Shown: positions 922-24,108, counted from the stretch's first letter. The stretch: 64,000 nucleotides of DNA from Franconibacter pulveris DSM 19144 (GCA_000621185.1 KK211223.1:1-64000); one strand, 5' to 3'. Notes: a model not told the origin generated them from the letters alone. A program made the numbers and translations.

Positions 922-1352
922 TAGCGAAGGTGCAGCAGAGGATATGGCCTGCCTTCACTGTCTCTTTCGCTGCGCCCCGTAACGCTGAATCCCATCTTCT
1001 GATAAAAAACCACTGCCTGCACGTTCTGTTCATTAACGTCGGTTGTCAGTTCAGGAGCATAAGAAAGCGCATGGGCAATCAGCATACGGCCCACGCCCTT
1101 GCCGCGAAAATCCGGATCGACGAATAGCGCGTGCATATGTGCTCCTGATAACAGCATAAAGGCCACGGGAGCGTCATCGGACGTAACGGCGACCCAAAGC
1201 GGAGCGTCCGGCAAAAATGCCCGCACCTGTTTTTCGATTTCGATACGATCTGCAGGCTGCAAAAAAGTATGGGTAGCATCGACCGAGCGACACCAGATAT
1301 CACCCAGGGCTTCTCCTTCATCACGCCGGGCACGGCGTATCGTTATGCTCAT
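912..1352 (-). CDS. yjaB: GNAT-family N-acetyltransferase YjaB (146 aa)
   Basis: Complete 146-aa ORF carrying a GNAT acetyl-CoA motif (..RGKGVGRMLI..). Synteny upstream of metA. Confidence 0.75.
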   Translation of the reverse strand: MSITIRRARRDEGEALGDIWCRSVDATHTFLQPADRIEIEKQVRAFLPDAPLWVAVTSDDAPVAFMLLSGAHMHALFVDPDFRGKGVGRMLIAHALSYAPELTTDVNEQNVQAVVFYQKMGFSVTGRSERDSEGRPYPLLHLRYQR

Positions 1353-1466
1353 CGTGAGCTCCTTCTTATTGCGTTTTTGTTCTAACCTTTCCCGGTTCTT
1401 GAAACTTTCTCACCTTCAGCATGCAGGCTCGACATTCACGCCGAACCTGGTTATTGTCAGCTATCT

Positions 1467-1492
1467 GGATGTCTAAACGTTTAAACGTATGC
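1467..1492 (+). promoter_or_regulatory. Three tandem MetJ boxes (GATGTCTA AACGTTTA AACGTATG) in the metA promoter
   Basis: 8-bp repeats resembling the AGACGTCT metbox consensus, just upstream of the metA RBS. Confidence 0.5.
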
Positions 1493-1509
1493 AGTGAGGA
1501 AATAAGGTT

Positions 1510-2439
1510 ATGCCTATTCGGGTGCCTGATGAGTTACCAGCCGTCAATTTTCTGCGTCAGGAAAATGTCTTTGTGATGACCACATCACGCGCCATTAATC
1601 AGGAGATCCGTCCGCTTAAGGTCCTGATACTTAACCTCATGCCGAAAAAAATTGAGACGGAAAACCAGTTCCTGCGTTTACTCTCAAACTCCCCGTTGCA
1701 GCTGGATATTCAACTTTTGCGCATCGACAGCCGCGAGTCCCGCAACACGCCCGCTGAGCATCTGAATAACTTTTACTGTAACTTTGAAGATATTTGCGAT
1801 CAGAACTTCGACGGGCTTATCGTCACCGGCGCGCCGTTGGGCCTGGTCGAGTTTAATGACGTCGCCTATTGGCCGCAAATCCAGCAGGTCCTGGAGTGGG
1901 CGAAAGATCACGTTACGTCGACGCTGTTTGTCTGCTGGGCGGTTCAGGCGGCGTTAAATATCCTTTATGGTATTCCAAAGCAGACCCGTAAAGAGAAGCT
2001 TTCTGGCGTTTATGAGCACCACATCACCCAGCCTCATGCGCTGCTGACAAAAGGGTTTGATGATACGTTTCTGGCGCCGCATTCGCGCTACGCGGATTTC
2101 CCGGCCTCGCTTATTCGCGATTATACCGATCTCGATATTCTTGCCGAATCGGAAGAGGGGGACGCTTACCTGTTCGCCAGCAAAGATAAACGCATCGCCT
2201 TTGTTACCGGCCATCCGGAATATGACGCTAATACGCTTGCGAGCGAGTATTTCCGCGACGTCGAGGCGGGTCTGGACCCGCAGGTGCCTTATAACTATTT
2301 CCCGAACAACGATCCGCAAAACAAACCTCGCGCGACATGGCGTAGCCATGGAAATTTACTCTTTACGAACTGGCTTAATTACTTCGTCTACCAGATCACG
2401 CCATATGATCTTCGTCACATGAATCCCACGCTGGATTAA
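1510..2439 (+). CDS. metA: Homoserine O-succinyltransferase
   Basis: 309 aa beginning [28 protein letters not shown]..., near-identical to E. coli MetA. Confidence 0.95.
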
Positions 2440-14649: not shown

Positions 14650-14886
14650 ATGCGCACCAGAGTTCCGTTTATCACTGCTGCCAGCAGTCCGCTGGAAATA
14701 AAAATGATAAGCCACGCCAGAAGGCAAGAAAGTGAATTCTCCGTCATGTCCGACGGTATAAGCCAGCAAGAAAACTGTCAGCATCATATCGAAGCAGAGC
14801 TTCGGGAGTATCAGCAGACCTTCGAAGCCATTAACCACTTTATTGAGGAGCATGGCGCGTTTAGTGATTTTCATCGGTCGTTCTGA
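14650..14886 (+). CDS. ccdA: CcdA-like antitoxin (78 aa)
   Basis: AAAGGAGG RBS. The C-terminus ..EYQQTFEAINHFIEEHGAFSDFHRSF aligns with F-plasmid CcdA ..EGMAEVARFIEMNGSFADENRDW. The stop overlaps the ccdB ATG (TGATG). Confidence 0.7.
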   Translation: MRTRVPFITAASSPLEIKMISHARRQESEFSVMSDGISQQENCQHHIEAELREYQQTFEAINHFIEEHGAFSDFHRSF

Positions 14887-15203
14887 TGGAACAGTTTCGG
14901 GTATATCAGAACAAAGGGGCAGGCAAGCATGCTTACCCCTATTTTATTAATATCCAGCACCCTGTCGCGAATACGCTTCGGCATGTTCTGGTTGTGCCAG
15001 TAGTCGACAGCAGGCTTTTGCCCGCTAAGCCCTTGTCGGCAAAAATTTGTCCGGTGGTTGAGATTGCAGGGCCCGCTTATGTGGCGATGACGCCCATGAT
15101 GGCGGGAGTGCCAACGAAAGAAGTCGGCGGCGAAGTTGCTGACTTTACGCACTATCGACAGCCATTACGCGATGCAGTCGATTTTTTGCTTAATGGCTAC
15201 TAA
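14886..15203 (+). CDS. ccdB: CcdB-like gyrase-poison toxin (105 aa)
   Basis: MEQFRVYQNK...VVPVVDSRLL...CPVVEIAGPAYVAMTPMMAGVP..GGEVADFTHY.. aligns along its length with F CcdB (MQFKVYTYK...VIPLASARLL...[32 protein letters not shown]..). Confidence 0.8.
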   Translation: MEQFRVYQNKGAGKHAYPYFINIQHPVANTLRHVLVVPVVDSRLLPAKPLSAKICPVVEIAGPAYVAMTPMMAGVPTKEVGGEVADFTHYRQPLRDAVDFLLNGY

Positions 15204-15251: not shown

Positions 15252-15524
15252 TCACCTTCGTCCGCGCGCAGGCGTGCTGGCGGACCAGGAGAAGGTGGAT
15301 TCGCTGTCGGGCTTGTAAGCCTGCTGCTTCTTCAGCTTACGCGCCTGTTTCGCCGCCAGCTCCCGCTGCGCCATCAGTTTATCGATGTACTCTTTCTTAA
15401 CGTGATTCGCTTCGGAATTGGTCAGCGGGCGGCCATGGGCGATACGGGCGCGGTCGAGCAGCGTTTTTAATTCGCGCTGTTCGCTTTCGGTCATCTCTTT
15501 CTGGGTCAGTCTGGCGGTGGACAT
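15252..15524 (-). CDS. yjbD: DUF3811-family protein YjbD (90 aa)
   Basis: MSTARLTQKEMTESEQRELKTLLDRARIAHGRPLTNSE... matches remembered E. coli YjbD. Confidence 0.75.
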   Translation of the reverse strand: MSTARLTQKEMTESEQRELKTLLDRARIAHGRPLTNSEANHVKKEYIDKLMAQRELAAKQARKLKKQQAYKPDSESTFSWSASTPARGRR

Positions 15525-16737: not shown

Positions 16738-18327
16738 TCATCCTGCGCCGCGCACACTCTCCCAACTAAGCCCGAACCTCGCCAAGTATTTACGCAGGCG
16801 GTCGGCGTCGTTGGGGTTGCTTTTCTTCTGTCGTGAGACGGCGAAAAGCGCCCGTCCGGCTTCAGAGAGCGTACTGCAACGGCGACAGACGGCGATGACC
16901 GCCGCCAGCTGGTCTTGGTCGAAGAGGTCGAGGGTCGCCGGGTCGACGGGCAGCGCAACGGCGCCGTGCGCAGGCCGCCAGCTTTGTTGCAGCCGCAGAA
17001 TCTCTTCTTCCACCAACGCCTCTGTAATGCGCCCCTGGTCCGCCAGCGTCGCCATGCGCGCAACCGATGCGCCAAGCTCGCGAAAATTGCCCGGCCAGCG
17101 CGCCTGCGGCGAGCAGGCGAAGAGGAGATACCGCTCGCGCGCTGTCTTATCGAAGCGGATTTGCGTTTGCTGCTCCGCGCAGAAGCGCTGCAACTCATAT
17201 TCCACGTTAGGCGCAATATCCTCGCGCCGTTCGGCAAGGCCCGGCAGCGCAAAGGCCCACATGTTGATGCGGGCATAAAGATCTTCACGAAAGCGGCCTT
17301 CGGCGACCCACTGCGTCATGTCGCGATGCGTGCCGGCGATAAGCTGGAAATCGCTGTGCACTTCTTTATCCGAACCAAACGGGAAGAACGTTTTCTCTTC
17401 AATCGCCTTCAGCAACATCGCCTGCTCGTCCAGCCCCAGCTCGGCTATCTCATCGAGAAACAGCACGCCGCCGTCCGCTTCCCGAAGCAGGCCCGCCCGC
17501 GCCTGCTGCGCGCCGGTAAACGCCCCTTTGACATGGCCGAACAGGGTCGACATGGCGTTATCGCCGCGCAGCGTCGCGCAGTTTACCGACACCAGCCGTC
17601 CCTGCACGAGATGACGCGCCTGGCGCAGCTGGAAAATACGTTTCGCGAGAAAGGATTTGCCCGCGCCGGTAGGGCCGGTAAGCAGAATGGGCGCGGTGGA
17701 GCGCAGCGCCACGCGCTCTATCTGGTCAATCAGGCGGTTAAAGGTGGCGTTGCGGGTGTCGATGCCCGCCTTCAGAAACGAGACCGACTGTTGCTGCTCG
17801 CGCTGAAAACGGCTGGTGAGCGTCGCGTAGCGGCTTAAATCGAGGTCGATAACCGAGCAGGTGCCGGCGGCTTTCTCCATGTCCGTAGCCTCGCCCCTGG
17901 CCGGGCTGGTTTGCAGCAGGCTGGCGGGAAGGTAACGCGCTTCCGTCAGCAGGAACCAGCAGATCTGCGCCACATGCGTGCCGGTGGTGATATGCACCAG
18001 GTACTCTTCGTTTTCGGTGTCGAAAGGGTAGTGCGTGGCGAAGTCGAGAAAGGCGGCGTAAACCTCTTCAAAATCCCACGGGTCAAGAATCGTTACAGGG
18101 TGGCGGCGTACCTGCGTCTGCGGCGAAACGACAGCGATGTCTTCGCTAAGCTGCTCCGCCATGCCTTTATCCCGCGGCTGGTGCAGCAACTCCAGCCGGT
18201 CGACGGGAAAACCGGGCTGCTGGCAAAGACCGACGGTGGGCCGCCATTTCTTCCAGCGGTTCTCCCGCTTGCCGCGCTTGTCCAGCACCGTACCCAACAC
18301 GCCAATCACTACCCGCCGCTTTTGCAT
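16738..18327 (-). CDS. rtcR: Sigma54-dependent regulator RtcR (CARF-AAA+-HTH, 529 aa)
   Basis: ~60% identity along its length to remembered E. coli RtcR. It has the GAFTGA motif (GHVKGAFTGAQ), a Walker A motif (GPTGAGKS), and the C-terminus DADRLRKYLARFGLSWE. Confidence 0.9.
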   Translation of the reverse strand: MQKRRVVIGVLGTVLDKRGKRENRWKKWRPTVGLCQQPGFPVDRLELLHQPRDKGMAEQLSEDIAVVSPQTQVRRHPVTILDPWDFEEVYAAFLDFATHYPFDTENEEYLVHITTGTHVAQICWFLLTEARYLPASLLQTSPARGEATDMEKAAGTCSVIDLDLSRYATLTSRFQREQQQSVSFLKAGIDTRNATFNRLIDQIERVALRSTAPILLTGPTGAGKSFLAKRIFQLRQARHLVQGRLVSVNCATLRGDNAMSTLFGHVKGAFTGAQQARAGLLREADGGVLFLDEIAELGLDEQAMLLKAIEEKTFFPFGSDKEVHSDFQLIAGTHRDMTQWVAEGRFREDLYARINMWAFALPGLAERREDIAPNVEYELQRFCAEQQTQIRFDKTARERYLLFACSPQARWPGNFRELGASVARMATLADQGRITEALVEEEILRLQQSWRPAHGAVALPVDPATLDLFDQDQLAAVIAVCRRCSTLSEAGRALFAVSRQKKSNPNDADRLRKYLARFGLSWESVRGAG

Positions 18328-18461
18328 GTTTATACCTATATATAAAACAATATAAATAATTATAAATTATTGATCGTCATGATAATACCTGAATGGCGGT
18401 CTCTGCTTTTTTATTTTTACTTTTCAATTAATTATTTTTTTATTCGCCCCTTAACTGAAAC

Positions 18462-18477
18462 TGGCACACTTCTGGCA
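18462..18477 (+). promoter_or_regulatory. Sigma54 (-24/-12) promoter of the rtc operon: TGGCACacttcTGGCA
   Basis: GG and GC elements spaced exactly as in TGGCAC-N5-TTGC. It is divergent from rtcR and preceded by a ~110-bp AT-rich UAS/IHF-like tract (18330–18440). Confidence 0.6.
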
Positions 18478-18481
18478 ATAC

Positions 18482-18802
18482 CTGTTATGTCAGCACACTG
18501 GGAGTCGCAGGGGATATGAGCCCCGCCGGCGCACCGGGAGCGGTAATACGTTTTCCAGGGGGCGTTCCGCCAGTGGAAAGACATGGGCGAAAAGTCGGTT
18601 TTATCAGGTTCGATTCCTGATTCGTCACCTCTTCTCCAGAGAGCTATGCAAGCAGTACCCGGTGGTCGGCTGTGATGACCACCCCGAGCGGGCGCCGGTA
18701 ACGACGCCGGGCCGCAGGCAAAACGCGCAGGCAGTCATGGCCCGTTTCCCTGCGGCTCCGTGTCCGCACTCGCGCCGGCAAGTGAAAAACAGGGAGATAA
18801 AA
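18482..18802 (+). ncRNA. Long structured untranslated leader and candidate ncRNA, with a tRNA T-arm-like hairpin at 18604–18620
   Basis: ~320 nt separate the sigma54 promoter from the first ATG with no credible ORF. It is GC-rich and contains hairpins (GGTGGTC-N9-GACCACC at 18661–18683) and a TCAGG-TTCGATT-CCTGA hairpin followed by TTCGTCACC. Confidence 0.3.
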
Positions 18803-19948
18803 ATGAATAACAAAATCACGATTCGAAAAGGCCAGTTGGGTTTACTGGCAAAACAGGGCGACTTTTATCAGGTGCTGGAGGCGGGCGAACATCGCCTGCC
18901 GTGGTTTAACAAACCGGACGTGACCGTGGTGGATGTAAACGGCGACGACGTGGCGCCGGAACTTGCCGATTATCTGCGCCGCTTTCAGCCGGAATGGGTA
19001 GAAAAATATTGCCTGTCTGTCGATACCGCCGAACAGGAAACGGCGGCGCTTTACCGCAACGGCGTACTGCTGGAAATCATCCCGCCGGGCGCGCGTCGGC
19101 TGTTCTGGCGCGATGGCGACAGCCTGCAGGTAAAACGCATGAGCACGCAGGATGTGCACGTGCCCATTGATGTCATGAATGCGGTATTGCAGCCGCGCGG
19201 TCGCAACGAGGCGGTGAAAGGCCGCGAGGCGATCCTGACGGTGCAGGTGCCCGCCTGGCATGTCGGCGTGTTGAAAATTGACGGCGAGACGCAGGCGCTG
19301 CTGCCGCCAGGCTTAAGCGCATACTGGAAAATCAACCACCTCGTGGAGGCGGAAGTGGTGGATACGCGCCTGCAGGCGCTGGAGGTATCGGGCCAGGAGA
19401 TCCTGACCAAAGATAAAGTGAATCTGCGCATCAACCTCGGCGCGAACTGGCGTTATCTCGATGTTCTGCAGGCGTACAGCCAGCTGGCGAAGCCGCTGGA
19501 TTACCTTTATCGCGAGTTGCAGTTTGCGCTTCGCGAAGCGGTAGGGACGCGCACGCTGGATGAGCTGCTGGAGAACAAGCAGGTCATCGACGACGTGGTG
19601 AGCGCGCAGGTGATTGCCCGTATGGCGCCGTTTGGCATTGAGGTCGCGTCAACAGGCGTGAAAGACATCGTGTTGCCCGGCGATATGAAAACCATTCTGT
19701 CGCGGCTGGTGGAGGCGGAAAAATCCGCGCAGGCGAATGTTATCCGCCGGCGCGAAGAGACCGCGGCGACGCGTTCGTTACTGAACACCGCCAAAGTGAT
19801 GGAAAACAACCCGGTGGCGCTGCGCTTAAAAGAGCTGGAGACACTGGAAAGGGTGGCGGAGCGCATCGATAAAATCTCGGTGTTTGGCGGTCTGGACCAG
19901 GTATTGCACGGTCTTGTAAACATTAAAGGAAAGATAAATGCAGCATAA
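18803..19948 (+). CDS. SPFH/band-7 (slipin-like) domain protein without an N-terminal TM segment (381 aa)
   Basis: AGGGAGA RBS. SPFH core (..KDKVNLRINLGANWRY..TRTLDELLENKQVIDDVVSAQVIARMAPFGIEVASTGVKDIVLPGDM..) followed by a coiled-coil tail. Its stop overlaps the rtcB start by 11 nt. Confidence 0.85.
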   Translation: MNNKITIRKGQLGLLAKQGDFYQVLEAGEHRLPWFNKPDVTVVDVNGDDVAPELADYLRRFQPEWVEKYCLSVDTAEQETAALYRNGVLLEIIPPGARRLFWRDGDSLQVKRMSTQDVHVPIDVMNAVLQPRGRNEAVKGREAILTVQVPAWHVGVLKIDGETQALLPPGLSAYWKINHLVEAEVVDTRLQALEVSGQEILTKDKVNLRINLGANWRYLDVLQAYSQLAKPLDYLYRELQFALREAVGTRTLDELLENKQVIDDVVSAQVIARMAPFGIEVASTGVKDIVLPGDMKTILSRLVEAEKSAQANVIRRREETAATRSLLNTAKVMENNPVALRLKELETLERVAERIDKISVFGGLDQVLHGLVNIKGKINAA

Positions 19949-21164
19949 CGATTATCAACTGCTGGCGCGTGAAAACAGCGCGCCGGTAAAAATGTGGACC
20001 AACGGCGTGCCGGTAGAATCAGAGGCGCGCGAACAACTGCTCAAAACGGCGAAAATGCCGTTTATCTTTAAACACCTGGCGGTGATGCCCGATGTGCATC
20101 TGGGTAAAGGCTCGACCATCGGCAGCGTTATTCCGACCAAAGGGGCGATTATCCCGGCGGCGGTGGGCGTGGATATCGGTTGCGGGATGATTGCGGTGCG
20201 CACGTCGCTGACTGCAAGCGACCTGCCGGATAACCTCAGCGGGCTGCGCAGCGCCATTGAGCATGCCGTGCCGCACGGGCGCACCAGCGCACGCGGCCAG
20301 CGGGATAAAGGGGCGTGGAACCGCGCGCCGCAGGAAGTGGACGCGCACTGGGCGCACCTGGCGCCGCGCTTTAAGCGGATCACCGATAAATATCCGAATC
20401 TGCTGAAAACCAACAACTATCAGCATCTGGGCACGCTGGGTACCGGCAACCACTTTATCGAGGTTTGTCTGGACGAGCAGCAGCGAGTGTGGGTCATGCT
20501 GCACAGCGGCTCGCGCGGCGTGGGTAACGCCATCGGCACCCACTTCATCGCGCTTGCTCAGAAAGATATGCAGCGCCATATCGCTAACCTGCCGGATCGC
20601 GATCTCGCTTATTTTGAAGAGGGAAGCAAGCATTATGCGGATTACATCGAAGCCGTCGAATGGGCGCAGGATTTCGCGCGCCATAACCGCGAAGTGATGA
20701 TGTCCCGCGTGCTGGCGGCGCTGTCTCAGGTCATCAAGAAACCCTTTATGACCCAGCAGGAGGCGGTGAACTGCCACCACAACTATGTGCAGAAAGAGCG
20801 TCATTTCGGCGAGGATGTGCTGGTGACGCGCAAAGGCGCTGTCTCCGCGCAGAAAGGGCAGATGGGGATTATTCCCGGTTCGATGGGCGCGAAAAGCTTT
20901 ATCGTGCGCGGTCTGGGCAACGAAGAGAGCTTCTGCTCCTGCAGCCACGGTGCGGGGCGCACCATGAGCCGAACGGCGGCGAAAAAGCGCTTTACGGTGG
21001 AAGATCAGATCCGCGCCACCGCGCACGTGGAGTGTCGCAAAGACAGCGACGTTATCGATGAAATTCCGATGGCGTATAAAGATATCGATGCGGTGATGGC
21101 CGCTCAGGCCTCATTGGTGGAAGTGGTGCATACCCTGCGCCAGGTGGTTTGCGTAAAAGGATAA
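19938..21164 (+). CDS. rtcB: RNA-splicing ligase RtcB
   Basis: 408 aa, ~75% identical to E. coli RtcB (..PFIFKHLAVMPDVHLGKGSTIGSVIPTKGAIIPAAVGVDIGCGM..). Confidence 0.95.
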   Translation: MQHNDYQLLARENSAPVKMWTNGVPVESEAREQLLKTAKMPFIFKHLAVMPDVHLGKGSTIGSVIPTKGAIIPAAVGVDIGCGMIAVRTSLTASDLPDNLSGLRSAIEHAVPHGRTSARGQRDKGAWNRAPQEVDAHWAHLAPRFKRITDKYPNLLKTNNYQHLGTLGTGNHFIEVCLDEQQRVWVMLHSGSRGVGNAIGTHFIALAQKDMQRHIANLPDRDLAYFEEGSKHYADYIEAVEWAQDFARHNREVMMSRVLAALSQVIKKPFMTQQEAVNCHHNYVQKERHFGEDVLVTRKGAVSAQKGQMGIIPGSMGAKSFIVRGLGNEESFCSCSHGAGRTMSRTAAKKRFTVEDQIRATAHVECRKDSDVIDEIPMAYKDIDAVMAAQASLVEVVHTLRQVVCVKG

Positions 21165-21168
21165 AAAA

Positions 21169-21954
21169 ATGGAACTGAACGGCGTTGATGCCGCCATGCG
21201 GGAGCGCGTGCGACACGTGCTGAAAGAAGTGGAAGCGCGCTACGGCGTGAAGGTGCTGTACGCCTGTGAATCAGGCAGCCGCGGCTGGGGTTTCGCCTCG
21301 CCGGACAGTGATTACGATGTGCGCTTTCTTTATGTGCATCCGCCCGAGTGGTATTTACGCGTTGATACGCCGCGCGACGTCATCGAGTTGCCAATAGACG
21401 ACACGCTGGACGTCTGCGGCTGGGAGTGGCGCAAAGCGCTCGGGCTGCTCAAGCGCGCTAACCCGACGCTTATCGAATGGCTCGATTCGCCAGTGGTCTA
21501 TCAGCAGGATGAAAAGGTCATCGCCGCGCTGCGTGAACAGGTGCCTGCATGGTTCTCCGCAGAGCGGGCGCGCTGGCACTACTACTCAATGGCGCGGAAA
21601 AACTTTCGCAGCTATTTGCAGGGCGATACGGTGCGGCTGAAGAAATATTTCTACGTGTTGCGCCCGCTGCTGGCGGTTCGCTGGATAGAAGCGGGCAAGG
21701 GCGCGCCGCCGATGCGTTTTGTCGAATTGCTGGACGGCGTCGTGACCGATCCGCTGCTGCGTCAGGAAATAGACGCGCTGCTGGCGAGAAAACAGCGTGC
21801 GGGCGAGGCGGAGTATGGCGCGGCGATGCCGCGGATACAGGCTTTTATCACGCAGGAGCTGGCGCGCGGCGAAACGCCGCCCGACCTGCCGCATAGTGAA
21901 AAGGCCTGCGCGACCAGGTTAGATACGCTGCTTTATGAAACGGTAATGGCCTGA
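21169..21954 (+). CDS. Pol-beta-superfamily nucleotidyltransferase (261 aa), possibly RlaP-like, occupying the rtcA position
   Basis: Begins 5 nt after the rtcB stop. Minimal NTase signature ..YACESGSRGWGFASPDSDYDVRFLYV.. (GS-x9-D-x-D). No RtcA-like cyclase is present. Confidence 0.8.
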   Translation: MELNGVDAAMRERVRHVLKEVEARYGVKVLYACESGSRGWGFASPDSDYDVRFLYVHPPEWYLRVDTPRDVIELPIDDTLDVCGWEWRKALGLLKRANPTLIEWLDSPVVYQQDEKVIAALREQVPAWFSAERARWHYYSMARKNFRSYLQGDTVRLKKYFYVLRPLLAVRWIEAGKGAPPMRFVELLDGVVTDPLLRQEIDALLARKQRAGEAEYGAAMPRIQAFITQELARGETPPDLPHSEKACATRLDTLLYETVMA

Positions 21955-21975
21955 CATTGTCAGGCCATTTTTTTA
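21945..21975. terminator. Bidirectional terminator (rtc operon / lysC)
   Basis: AATGGCCTGACA-TTG-TCAGGCCATT hairpin followed by T7. It overlaps the NTase stop and abuts the lysC stop. Confidence 0.6.
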
Positions 21976-23339: not shown

Positions 23340-23625
23340 GTCAGGGGGCCATAGCGCATGGCGTATAAAGTATTCAGCCCTGGAACAAGGAGAGAGCGGT
23401 AAGGGGGCGGACGCAGGCGGGAAAACCACAACCACATACACCCAGAAGCGCTCCACCTTGCGAAACGTTCGACTGCTGACGTTTCGGGTGACAACCCAGG
23501 GGATTCAGCCCCTGTAGCCGATAGCGAACGTTGCCAGACGCCACGCTACCTCGGCGTCGCTCCCCCTCCCGTGCCGTCTTTGGAGTGGCTCCTCGGACAC
23601 GATACCTGGGCGACGCGCCTCTTCT
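23340..23625 (-). ncRNA. Lysine riboswitch (L box) in the lysC leader
   Basis: The minus-strand reading AGAGGCGCGTCGCCCAGGTATCGTGTCCGAGGAGCCACTCC...GGCTACAGGGGCTGAATCCCCTGGGTTGTCACC... aligns almost base-for-base with the E. coli lysC riboswitch. Confidence 0.8.
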
Positions 23626-24108
23626 GGTTTTCCTTCATATTTCAGGCTGTGGCTGCGTTGCTTGCGCGGCCTTACCCCAGTCACATACTTATGTATGTGA
23701 CTGGGGATGCGCCCGCTTACCGCCTTGCCACACCCCGAACTATTTGGAAAACGGCGACTCATTGATTTTGTTTTACCGTGGCAAAACGAAATGCTGGAGT
23801 ATCAGGTTTGTTCAGTGGGCATAGCGCGACACCGAAACAACCTAAAATTTACCGGCTGACAACGCGCAGCGCGCTTCGGGCCGGTATTTATTCATAAATA
23901 AAGGGTTAGCAGGGTTATTGTCAACGATACGGTCATGGGGATTTTTCATGTTGCGCTGCCTGCCAGGAAAATAACTTATAACAGCTATACTTTCGTCTTA
24001 ACCGGCACGGTGGCGCGCAACCAACGCCATGATAAAAATCATCACAATTCCAGCCACAAGCGCTACAATCGACCGCAGTTTCAATTCTCAAATCACAAGA
24101 GTATTGCT

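Follow-up and report, generated by a model that had tools for sequence, protein, structure and literature searches.

The rtc locus at positions 16738-21975 of a 64,000-nt stretch of DNA from Franconibacter pulveris DSM 19144 (GCA_000621185.1 KK211223.1:1-64000; this whole stretch is referred to below as the window) is an intact member of a known, widespread and predicted class of RNA-repair systems, whose enzymes have been characterised and whose SPFH protein and RNA parts have not. It comprises rtcR on one strand and, on the other, a long leader followed by the genes for an SPFH/Band-7 protein, an RNA ligase (RtcB) and a nucleotidyltransferase (RlaP). With a probability of about 0.7, we regard it as a stress-inducible RNA-repair operon of the Band-7/SPFH - tRNA-like RNA - RtcB - RlaP class, acting by the mechanism outlined below. 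The under-described part of the locus is the long, conserved and folded leader with what appears to be a cut-down tRNA-like element.

According to the summary given by Wang et al. (bioRxiv 10.1101/312249), the association of a Band-7/SPFH protein with b7a-tRNA, RtcB and, in part, RlaP was predicted by Burroughs & Aravind (NAR 2016), and the Band-7 protein was proposed to be a functional analogue of Rsr/Y RNA; the same summary describes b7a-tRNA as lacking experimental validation. The name RlaP was given in that 2016 study, as mentioned in PMC12776372. In Pseudomonas aeruginosa, the SPFH protein PaFlo8 (PA14_60630) belongs to the rtc locus (PMC13086221). Related loci were retrieved with the SPFH alignment (80 at the species level; clustering was carried out on 85, with L081-L085 added), and their neighbourhoods were covered within +/-5 kb. 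The P. aeruginosa type of arrangement, SPFH(PaFlo8)-rtcB-rlaP-rtcA beside rtcR, was found among them in L010 and L015 and is also known from the literature (PMC12776372, PMC13086221). Thus, the gene combination, which the original prediction from the sequence alone did not know to be experimentally characterised, has been named and predicted since 2016 and occurs in P. aeruginosa too; the system is partly characterised, not as a whole. The SPFH scaffold placed by that prediction in the position of Rsr coincides with the published 2016 proposal, as it is summarised in the preprint cited above.

Genes, enzymes and the proposed mechanism

Scans against Pfam and NCBIfam, together with reading of the sequence, placed all the genes named in the original prediction, as well as its promoter and terminator, at the coordinates collected in Table 1. 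The four open reading frames (ORFs), rtcR, SPFH, rtcB and rlaP, are of full length and free of frameshifts, so neither the SPFH nor the nucleotidyltransferase ORF is a frameshifted remnant. The end of the SPFH gene and the start of rtcB overlap by exactly 11 nt, as had been predicted, rtcB and rlaP are separated by a 4-nt gap, and lysC comes directly after the terminator. The start codon of the SPFH gene is the ATG at 18803, with a Shine-Dalgarno sequence GGGAG (18792-18796) seven bases ahead. A mechanical ORF beginning at GTG 18662 was rejected, as homologues align from residues 1-4 of the product that starts at ATG 18803.

Table 1. Coordinates of genes and other elements of the rtc locus in the window
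Feature	Position	Strand	Description and basis
rtcR	16738..18327	-	sigma54-dependent activator, N-terminal RtcR/CARF sensor domain
AT-rich repeats, abutting rtcR start	18328..18375		TTTATC..GATAA..GATAAA type; putative RtcR upstream activating sites
sigma54 promoter	18462..18477	+	TGGCACacttcTGGCA (-24 GG, -12 GC); predicted, read from sequence
Leader domain D1	18489..18582	+	three-way junction: outer stem, hairpin A (18507-18526), hairpin B (18527-18569); RNAalifold and pair counts, 14 enteric leaders
Putative reduced b7a-tRNA-like element	18585..18629	+	covariance model R1, 19 bits, E 5.7e-5
Leader hairpin C	18662..18682	+	7 pairs, 6 with compensatory changes
Leader domain D3	18690..18777	+	long interrupted GC-rich hairpin; 22 pairs, 14 with compensatory changes
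SPFH/Band-7 ('slipin') gene	18803..19948	+	381 aa; PF01145 at 5.7e-27
rtcB	19938..21164	+	3'-phosphate/2',3'-cyclic-phosphate RNA ligase, 408 aa; PF01139 at 5.3e-135
rlaP	21169..21954	+	pol-beta-type nucleotidyltransferase, 261 aa; PF10127 at 1.7e-94, profile 1-248/249
Intrinsic terminator	21945..21969	+	11-bp stem and T run, common to convergent lysC

The RtcR protein matches PF06956 over the whole profile (3.5e-83, 1-183/183) and PF00158 (Sigma54_activat, 1.3e-49), and its score against the NCBIfam model NF038308 (RNA_repair_RtcR) is 841 bits at a cut-off of 650. The sigma54 promoter has the form TGGCAC-N5-TGGCA, and the same element was found 309-364 nt before the SPFH ATG in 13 orthologous enteric loci. 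The AT-rich repeats near the rtcR start are kept in alignments of the window, Citrobacter and Escherichia coli O145, and we infer that they serve as upstream activating sites of RtcR. In Salmonella, RtcR is activated by damaged tRNAs, whether nicked or fragmented, that carry a terminal 2',3'-cyclic phosphate (PMC7790460).

The CSHGAGR motif of RtcB is intact, and its histidine, residue 337, corresponds to the one that becomes guanylylated in the E. coli enzyme. The gene shares 73% nucleotide identity with E. coli rtcB. The nucleotidyltransferase, expected to stand after rtcB, proved to be RlaP from end to end of the Pfam profile. Its residues G36-S37, D46, D48 and D81 are conserved at a level of at least 95% in 23 homologues, and "three strictly conserved aspartic acids" have been reported in PfRlaP. 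By sequence, RlaP matched no entry of the PDB; the protein is 55-63% identical to RlaPs from rtc loci of Pseudomonas and Burkholderia. Two Pseudomonas enzymes of this type, PfRlaP and PaRlaP, both from rtcB-rlaP-rtcA operons, were characterised in a 2025 preprint (PMC12776372). They add 1-2 nucleoside monophosphates (NMP) to 3'-OH ends of RNA, do not accept 3'-phosphate RNAs as substrates and, when offered a tRNA mimic with a nick, favour its 5' half; it has been proposed that they put back nucleotides which ribotoxins like RloC cut out (PMC12776372).

The SPFH protein, annotated by NCBI as a 'slipin family protein', has no hydrophobic segment (the maximum Kyte-Doolittle mean over 19 residues is 1.19) and, as judged from its sequence, is a soluble protein without a membrane anchor, which agrees with its predicted cytoplasmic location; the Pfam match in Table 1 bears out the family assignment. 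Its nearest named relatives are those of Franconibacter helveticus (94%), Cronobacter (90%), Siccibacter (86%) and Citrobacter (81%), the identity to Pseudomonas proteins is 53-57% over the full length, and the family numbers 544 clusters (50% identity, E<1e-30). An AlphaFold2 monomer model, built with a 48-sequence alignment (predicted local distance difference test score, pLDDT, 89), consists of two N-terminal beta domains, the SPFH domain and long C-terminal helices. Foldseek searches with this model retrieved stomatin (3.6e-16) and also HflK/C, prohibitin, erlin and the major vault protein, with E values from 3.6e-16 to about 1e-9 and a sequence identity of just 12-30%; the alignments with the major vault protein were longer and also covered the N-terminal beta domains. 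All these proteins form rings or cages, and by analogy the SPFH protein of the window probably oligomerises in a similar way.

The most conserved stretch of the family lies outside the SPFH domain, in the long C-terminal helix (residues 305-330 of the window protein). It has the form AEKxAQANxIxRREETAATRSLLNTAK with invariant R316, E319, R324, N328, T329 and A330, and this arginine-rich helix could be a surface for binding RNA or a partner.

The following mechanism may be proposed on the basis of these data. By analogy with the Salmonella protein, RtcR would sense damaged tRNA with 2',3'-cyclic phosphate ends through its CARF-like domain, bind to the AT-rich repeats near its own gene and open the sigma54 promoter. 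The resulting transcript would contain the folded leader (D1, a minihelix, hairpin C and D3), the coupled SPFH and rtcB genes and then rlaP. RtcB, through His337, would join 2',3'-cyclic-phosphate or 3'-phosphate ends to 5'-OH ends, for which RtcA would not be needed, and RlaP would repair shortened 3'-OH ends, as its Pseudomonas orthologues do. Judging from gene linkage and fold, a ring or cage of the SPFH protein, together with the leader-derived tRNA-like RNA, might act as a scaffold or cofactor of the repair enzymes.

The leader RNA and its tRNA-like element

The leader between the sigma54 promoter and the SPFH ATG is about 315-325 nt long. The existence of a long leader had been noticed in the original prediction, which overlooked its conserved structured RNA and the tRNA-like remnant. 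When 14 enteric leaders were aligned (mean identity 63%), their consensus fold contained 62 pairs, and compensatory changes were seen in 44 of these. The proportion of paired cells was 92.4%, compared with 36-47% in controls with partners slid by 1-3 columns, and by any measure the observed values were attained in 0/500 shuffles. Folding of the single leader sequence was not significant (z = -1.5); the structure is evident from the comparative alignment only. Besides D1, hairpin C and D3, the last of which ends 26 nt ahead of the SPFH ATG, the leader contains the tRNA-like element. A leader peptide was considered and rejected, and an antisense 64-aa ORF (18625-18819) falls within the structured RNA. 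An Rfam search of the locus and leader (E<=10) gave only chance-level matches (tracrRNA, Mu-gpT-DE, thermometer) far below their gathering scores and no match to a Y-RNA family. ARAGORN called no tRNA in this leader or in those of enteric relatives, the latter being without Rfam matches as well, and no separate promoter or terminator of a small RNA (sRNA) was found in the leader.

The tRNA-like element was recognised with the covariance model R1, made from 40 b7a-tRNAs and used to search 7 kb with filters off. The match includes an acceptor-like stem, GGCGAA/UUCGUC, and a T arm, UCAGG-UUCGAUU-CCUGA (18605-18619), and 35 model positions that correspond to the D and anticodon arms are missing. 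We read this 45-nt element as a reduced b7a-tRNA derivative, a remnant that falls short of a full cloverleaf member. Its T loop, GGTTCGAYTCC, is invariant across the 14 enteric leaders, the flanks vary, and the closing stem covaries (UGAUA/UAUCG in Lonsdalea); further enteric bacteria also retain just the T arm, with or without the closing stem.

Full b7a-tRNAs were found again in most non-enteric loci as ARAGORN tRNA-like genes approximately 250-450 nt upstream of SPFH. With nhmmer, a b7a-type gene on the same strand and within 1.2 kb upstream of SPFH was located in 62/80 loci, at a median distance of 332 nt. In the cloverleaf derived from 40 aligned sequences, the acceptor stem is 5 bp long, the D arm and the T loop do not vary and 14/19 pairs covary; the anticodon loops are variable and often abnormal, with no consistent anticodon. 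In the non-enteric loci with a recognisable sigma54 promoter, about 130-215 nt separate it from the closest tRNA-like gene downstream, and the tRNA-like RNA therefore belongs to the operon transcript. The strict sigma54 pattern gave no match in several Pseudomonas loci, because the -12 element there is TCGC. In many loci, two b7a-type genes stand in tandem, abutting or overlapping by 1-3 nt (for example, L006 4566-4710, L010 4607-4749, L014 4603-4746, L034, L036, L049, L053, L069 and L075); their acceptor stems are short, and encoded CCA is missing in most of them.

The leader domains differ in their distribution. The D1 covariance model R2 matches the E. coli leader at 50 bits and gives weak matches (15-29 bits) in L006, L007, L008, L010, L012, L013, L014 and L025. 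These eight loci are of the Pseudomonas, Dechloromonas, Accumulibacter and Burkholderiales types, and the case for their D1 is one of positional concordance and not of scores alone, as D1 always lies between the sigma54 promoter and the b7a-tRNA. Because of this placement, D1 may be considered an older partner of the tRNA-like gene. The D3 model R3 scores 86 bits in the window and 66 bits in E. coli and matches enteric loci only; an impression by eye that D3 is shared with Pseudomonas (L010) was not borne out, as R3 with filters off found no match in Pseudomonas or Burkholderia leaders.

The minihelix of an acceptor stem and a T arm is the part of tRNA which many tRNA-end-handling enzymes recognise; therefore, it is a plausible, albeit speculative, handle for RlaP or RtcB. 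A further suggestion, which we put forward tentatively and consider less probable than its contrary, is that the leader, rather than a passive untranslated region, is a multi-domain RNA not described before, which is processed and joins the SPFH protein in a vault-like or Ro/Y-like ribonucleoprotein presenting broken tRNAs to RlaP and RtcB. D1 of such an RNA would be conserved from Pseudomonas and Burkholderiales to enteric bacteria, D3 would be enteric-specific, and the minimal enteric unit would be composed of the leader, SPFH and RlaP, working in E. coli, Citrobacter and Klebsiella in trans with canonical RtcR and RtcB.

Several points weigh against the assignment of the locus to an RNA-repair operon with the above mechanism. 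The tRNA-like element is just a 45-nt remnant which scores 19 bits and is called by neither ARAGORN nor Rfam. We infer the scaffold role of the SPFH protein, as well as any trans-acting role of the leader, from linkage. The product of RlaP is a 3'-OH end that RtcB cannot ligate directly, an incompatibility flagged by the RlaP authors themselves (PMC12776372). Finally, deletion of paFlo8 in P. aeruginosa had no phenotype in general assays, among which RNA damage was not included (PMC13086221).

The best surviving alternative, which we find possible and yet doubtful, is that the leader is a purely cis-acting 5' untranslated region (an attenuator or an element of mRNA stability or translational control), in which the T arm is a relic of b7a-tRNA without cofactor function. 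The loss of the D and anticodon arms in enteric bacteria, the position of the enteric-specific D3 close to the start codon and the failure to find a promoter or terminator of a separate sRNA are consistent with this idea. However, the T loop has stayed invariant in 14 divergent leaders amid variable flanks, the stems covary, D1 holds its position beside full b7a-tRNAs in beta- and gamma-proteobacteria, and the leader is retained with SPFH and RlaP in E. coli, Citrobacter and Klebsiella. Besides, a role in cis and a role of a processed RNA in trans are not mutually exclusive.

Related loci and the composition of the system

Among the 85 clustered loci, RtcB was found in 35, RtcR in 32, RlaP in 22 and RtcA (PF01137) in 11. 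The order rtcR-leader-SPFH-rtcB-rlaP, between the SBF transporter/yjbD and lysC, recurs in Cronobacter (L081), Siccibacter (L085) and Franconibacter helveticus (L087), and SPFH-rtcB-rlaP with lysC is visible in a short contig (L088). The identical arrangement at the same chromosomal site indicates that the locus was vertically inherited in the Cronobacter/Franconibacter/Siccibacter clade.

A number of other enteric loci (L001-L004, L041, L083, L089 and L090), including those of Superficieibacter, Klebsiella, Lonsdalea, Mangrovibacter and Citrobacter, contain rtcR, the leader, SPFH and rlaP without rtcB; those of Citrobacter and Klebsiella occupy the same yjbD-lysC site, and rtcR is split in L089. 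As these loci keep the leader, SPFH and RlaP without the ligase gene, the conserved enteric core excludes the ligase. The slipin gene is present in 1631/5426 (30%) complete E. coli genomes. In E. coli O145 RM9872 (L086, NZ_CP028379.1 4889106-4899030), a slipin and nucleotidyltransferase pair lies between yjbD and lysC and is followed by a frameshifted zeta-toxin gene; neither rtcR nor rtcB is present at this site, and a canonical rtcB is located elsewhere in the genome. The pair retains the sigma54 promoter CTGGCACGCTTCTCGCAA, the AT-rich repeats, D1 and D3, and the presence of the promoter without a local rtcR suggests that it is controlled by canonical RtcR in trans.

Such loci raise the question of whether the SPFH protein and the tRNA-like RNA are the primary module, engaged not in ligation but in nuclease buffering (as a decoy) or in management of the tRNA pool, with RtcB and RlaP as exchangeable accessories. 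In its favour, SPFH and b7a-tRNA are the most constant pair (62/80 loci, compared with 35/85 for RtcB), many loci without RtcB within 5 kb carry tRNA arrays, HNH, reverse transcriptase, AAA ATPase or PPK2 genes, the anticodon loops of b7a-tRNAs are often abnormal, and enteric loci have lost rtcB and kept SPFH and RlaP. In the window, however, SPFH is translationally coupled to rtcB and is under RtcR control, and RtcB may be located further off or elsewhere in the genomes viewed within 5 kb. This explanation therefore seems unlikely to us, and a stress-inducible repair operon is preferred.

The absence of RtcA was an essential part of the original prediction, and it was confirmed for the window. 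A tblastn search of the 64 kb with RtcA of L029 gave a best E value of 0.36, and by a Pfam scan ten window ORFs of 290-369 aa, the size range of RtcA, are all unrelated housekeeping genes (among them, metA, malK, malM, ubiA, dusA and alr). This absence, along with the position of the nucleotidyltransferase gene after rtcB, had led to the idea of an alternative end-healing cassette, where nucleotidyl transfer replaces the cyclisation step of RtcA. The idea has been largely refuted and is now very improbable. RlaP is not a cyclase substitute, because it co-occurs with RtcA and needs a 3'-OH end: RtcA is also present in 9/15 loci with RtcB and RlaP, for example in L015 with the order rtcB-rlaP-rtcA, and both proteins are found together in P. 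aeruginosa and P. fluorescens (PMC12776372). The absence of RtcA, moreover, is not distinctive but is the majority state, being observed within +/-5 kb at 24/35 RtcB loci whether or not RlaP is there. As for a decaying and non-functional rtc remnant, which the loss of rtcB in Citrobacter, Klebsiella and E. coli, the loss of rtcR at the O145 site and its splitting in L089 might suggest, it is hardly credible in view of the four full-length ORFs with intact catalytic motifs, the intact promoter, Shine-Dalgarno sequence and terminator and the leader stems upheld by compensatory changes.

Other genes accompany the SPFH protein in various bacteria. Some loci carry, immediately before the b7a-tRNA/SPFH pair and in its orientation, arrays of 5-25 canonical-looking tRNA genes, many of which encode CCA (L050 527-4664, L031 527-4580, L017 1332-3294, L038 3414-4400 and L009 3142-4759, and also L022, L023, L048, L058, L064, L066 and L077). 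The array and the SPFH gene are often separated by a gene of an HNH endonuclease (cluster c12, 11 loci); in PMC8421152, where SPFH is not mentioned, tRNA L-arrays have been tied to HNH and rtcB. Inside the 25-tRNA array of L050, upstream of HNH - b7a-tRNA - SPFH - RtcB - RlaP, there is a match to GOLLD RNA (RF02032) at 1327-1814 (+); it scores 153.5 bits, just over the gathering score of 150, with E 6e-41. In an Rfam scan of 24 related loci, 12 of them with arrays of at least 4 tRNAs, GOLLD was found at the gathering score in L050 alone and ROOL in none.

In cyanobacterial loci (Nostoc and others: L040, L042, L044-L046, L055, L057, L059 and L060), the SPFH homologue is not beside RtcB, and tandem pairs of b7a-like 'tRNA-Met(cat)' genes lie 0.5-3 kb upstream of it; several of these loci also contain a reverse transcriptase (PF00078, cluster c53) and PPK2 (cluster c36). 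In 7 loci, including L006, L010 (6200-6562), L014 and L016, the gene of a small treble-clef zinc-finger protein (PF13451 zf_Tbcl, 2e-12) separates SPFH from rtcB, and a 270-aa protein without a Pfam match (cluster c48) has the same position in L013, L027 and L030.

The surroundings of the rtc locus in the window include a CcdA/CcdB toxin-antitoxin pair at 14650-15203 (+), with matches to PF07362 (2.3e-6) and PF01845 (2.2e-24), and, beside it, yjbD (DUF3811) at 15252-15524. In the corresponding neighbourhood of Cronobacter and Citrobacter, there is a Gp49/HTH_37 (HigB/HigA-like) pair, and the toxin-antitoxin slot adjoining the rtc locus looks variable. Upstream of lysC, an ordinary and expected lysine riboswitch (RF00168, 95 bits) is located at 23438-23631 (-).

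Significance and comparison with known systems

The locus defines no new repair chemistry. In our opinion, what remains of interest is its SPFH/RNA half, along with the structured leader, and among enterobacteria it is a clean and genetically tractable representative of the predicted SPFH/tRNA-like branch of RNA repair. What the SPFH protein and the tRNA mimic cognate to it do in this repair has been a matter of prediction since 2016, as follows from the summary in bioRxiv 10.1101/312249. Enteric bacteria provide a natural 'deletion series', which extends from the full operon in the window to the leader-SPFH-RlaP loci without RtcB (Citrobacter and Klebsiella) and further to those that also have no RtcR (30% of E. 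coli genomes). Together with the leader architecture, this series gives concrete constructs for probing the functions of SPFH and RNA, and the same constructs could address the disagreement between the 3'-OH products of RlaP and the requirement of RtcB for a 3'-phosphate.

In its SPFH fold and long helices, the protein resembles the subunits of SPFH assemblies (stomatin, HflK/C, prohibitin and erlin) and of the vault, with its MVP (major vault protein) shoulder domain and vault RNA; unlike them, it has no membrane anchor and is known here as a monomer model. With rtcR/rtcBA of E. coli, the locus has in common the RtcR equivalog, the sigma54 promoter and an RtcB of 408 aa in which His337 is present. 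In contrast to the E. coli operon, it has no RtcA, contains the additional SPFH and RlaP genes and a 325-nt structured leader and occupies a different site, near lysC.

The closest known system is the Band-7/SPFH class predicted in 2016, as exemplified by the rtcR/PaFlo8-rtcB-rlaP-rtcA locus of P. aeruginosa, which shares with the window the same SPFH family, the order RtcR(-)/RNA/SPFH/RtcB/RlaP, sigma54 control and the D1 domain. The window differs from it in having no rtcA, a putative minihelix instead of one or two full cloverleaves, the enteric-specific D3 and the 11-nt SPFH/rtcB overlap. The rsr-yrlB-yrlA-rtcB-rtcA locus of Salmonella is likewise controlled by RtcR, and there, too, a putative scaffold protein and a tRNA-mimicking non-coding RNA precede rtcB; Salmonella YrlA also carries a tRNA-like T arm (bioRxiv 10.1101/312249). 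Unlike this Ro60/Y-RNA version, the window encodes an SPFH protein and not a TROVE/Ro60 ring, with the TROVE domain absent from all four locus proteins by a Pfam scan and no Y-RNA family detected, and its RNA lies upstream of the scaffold gene, whereas in Salmonella it is located between the scaffold and ligase genes.

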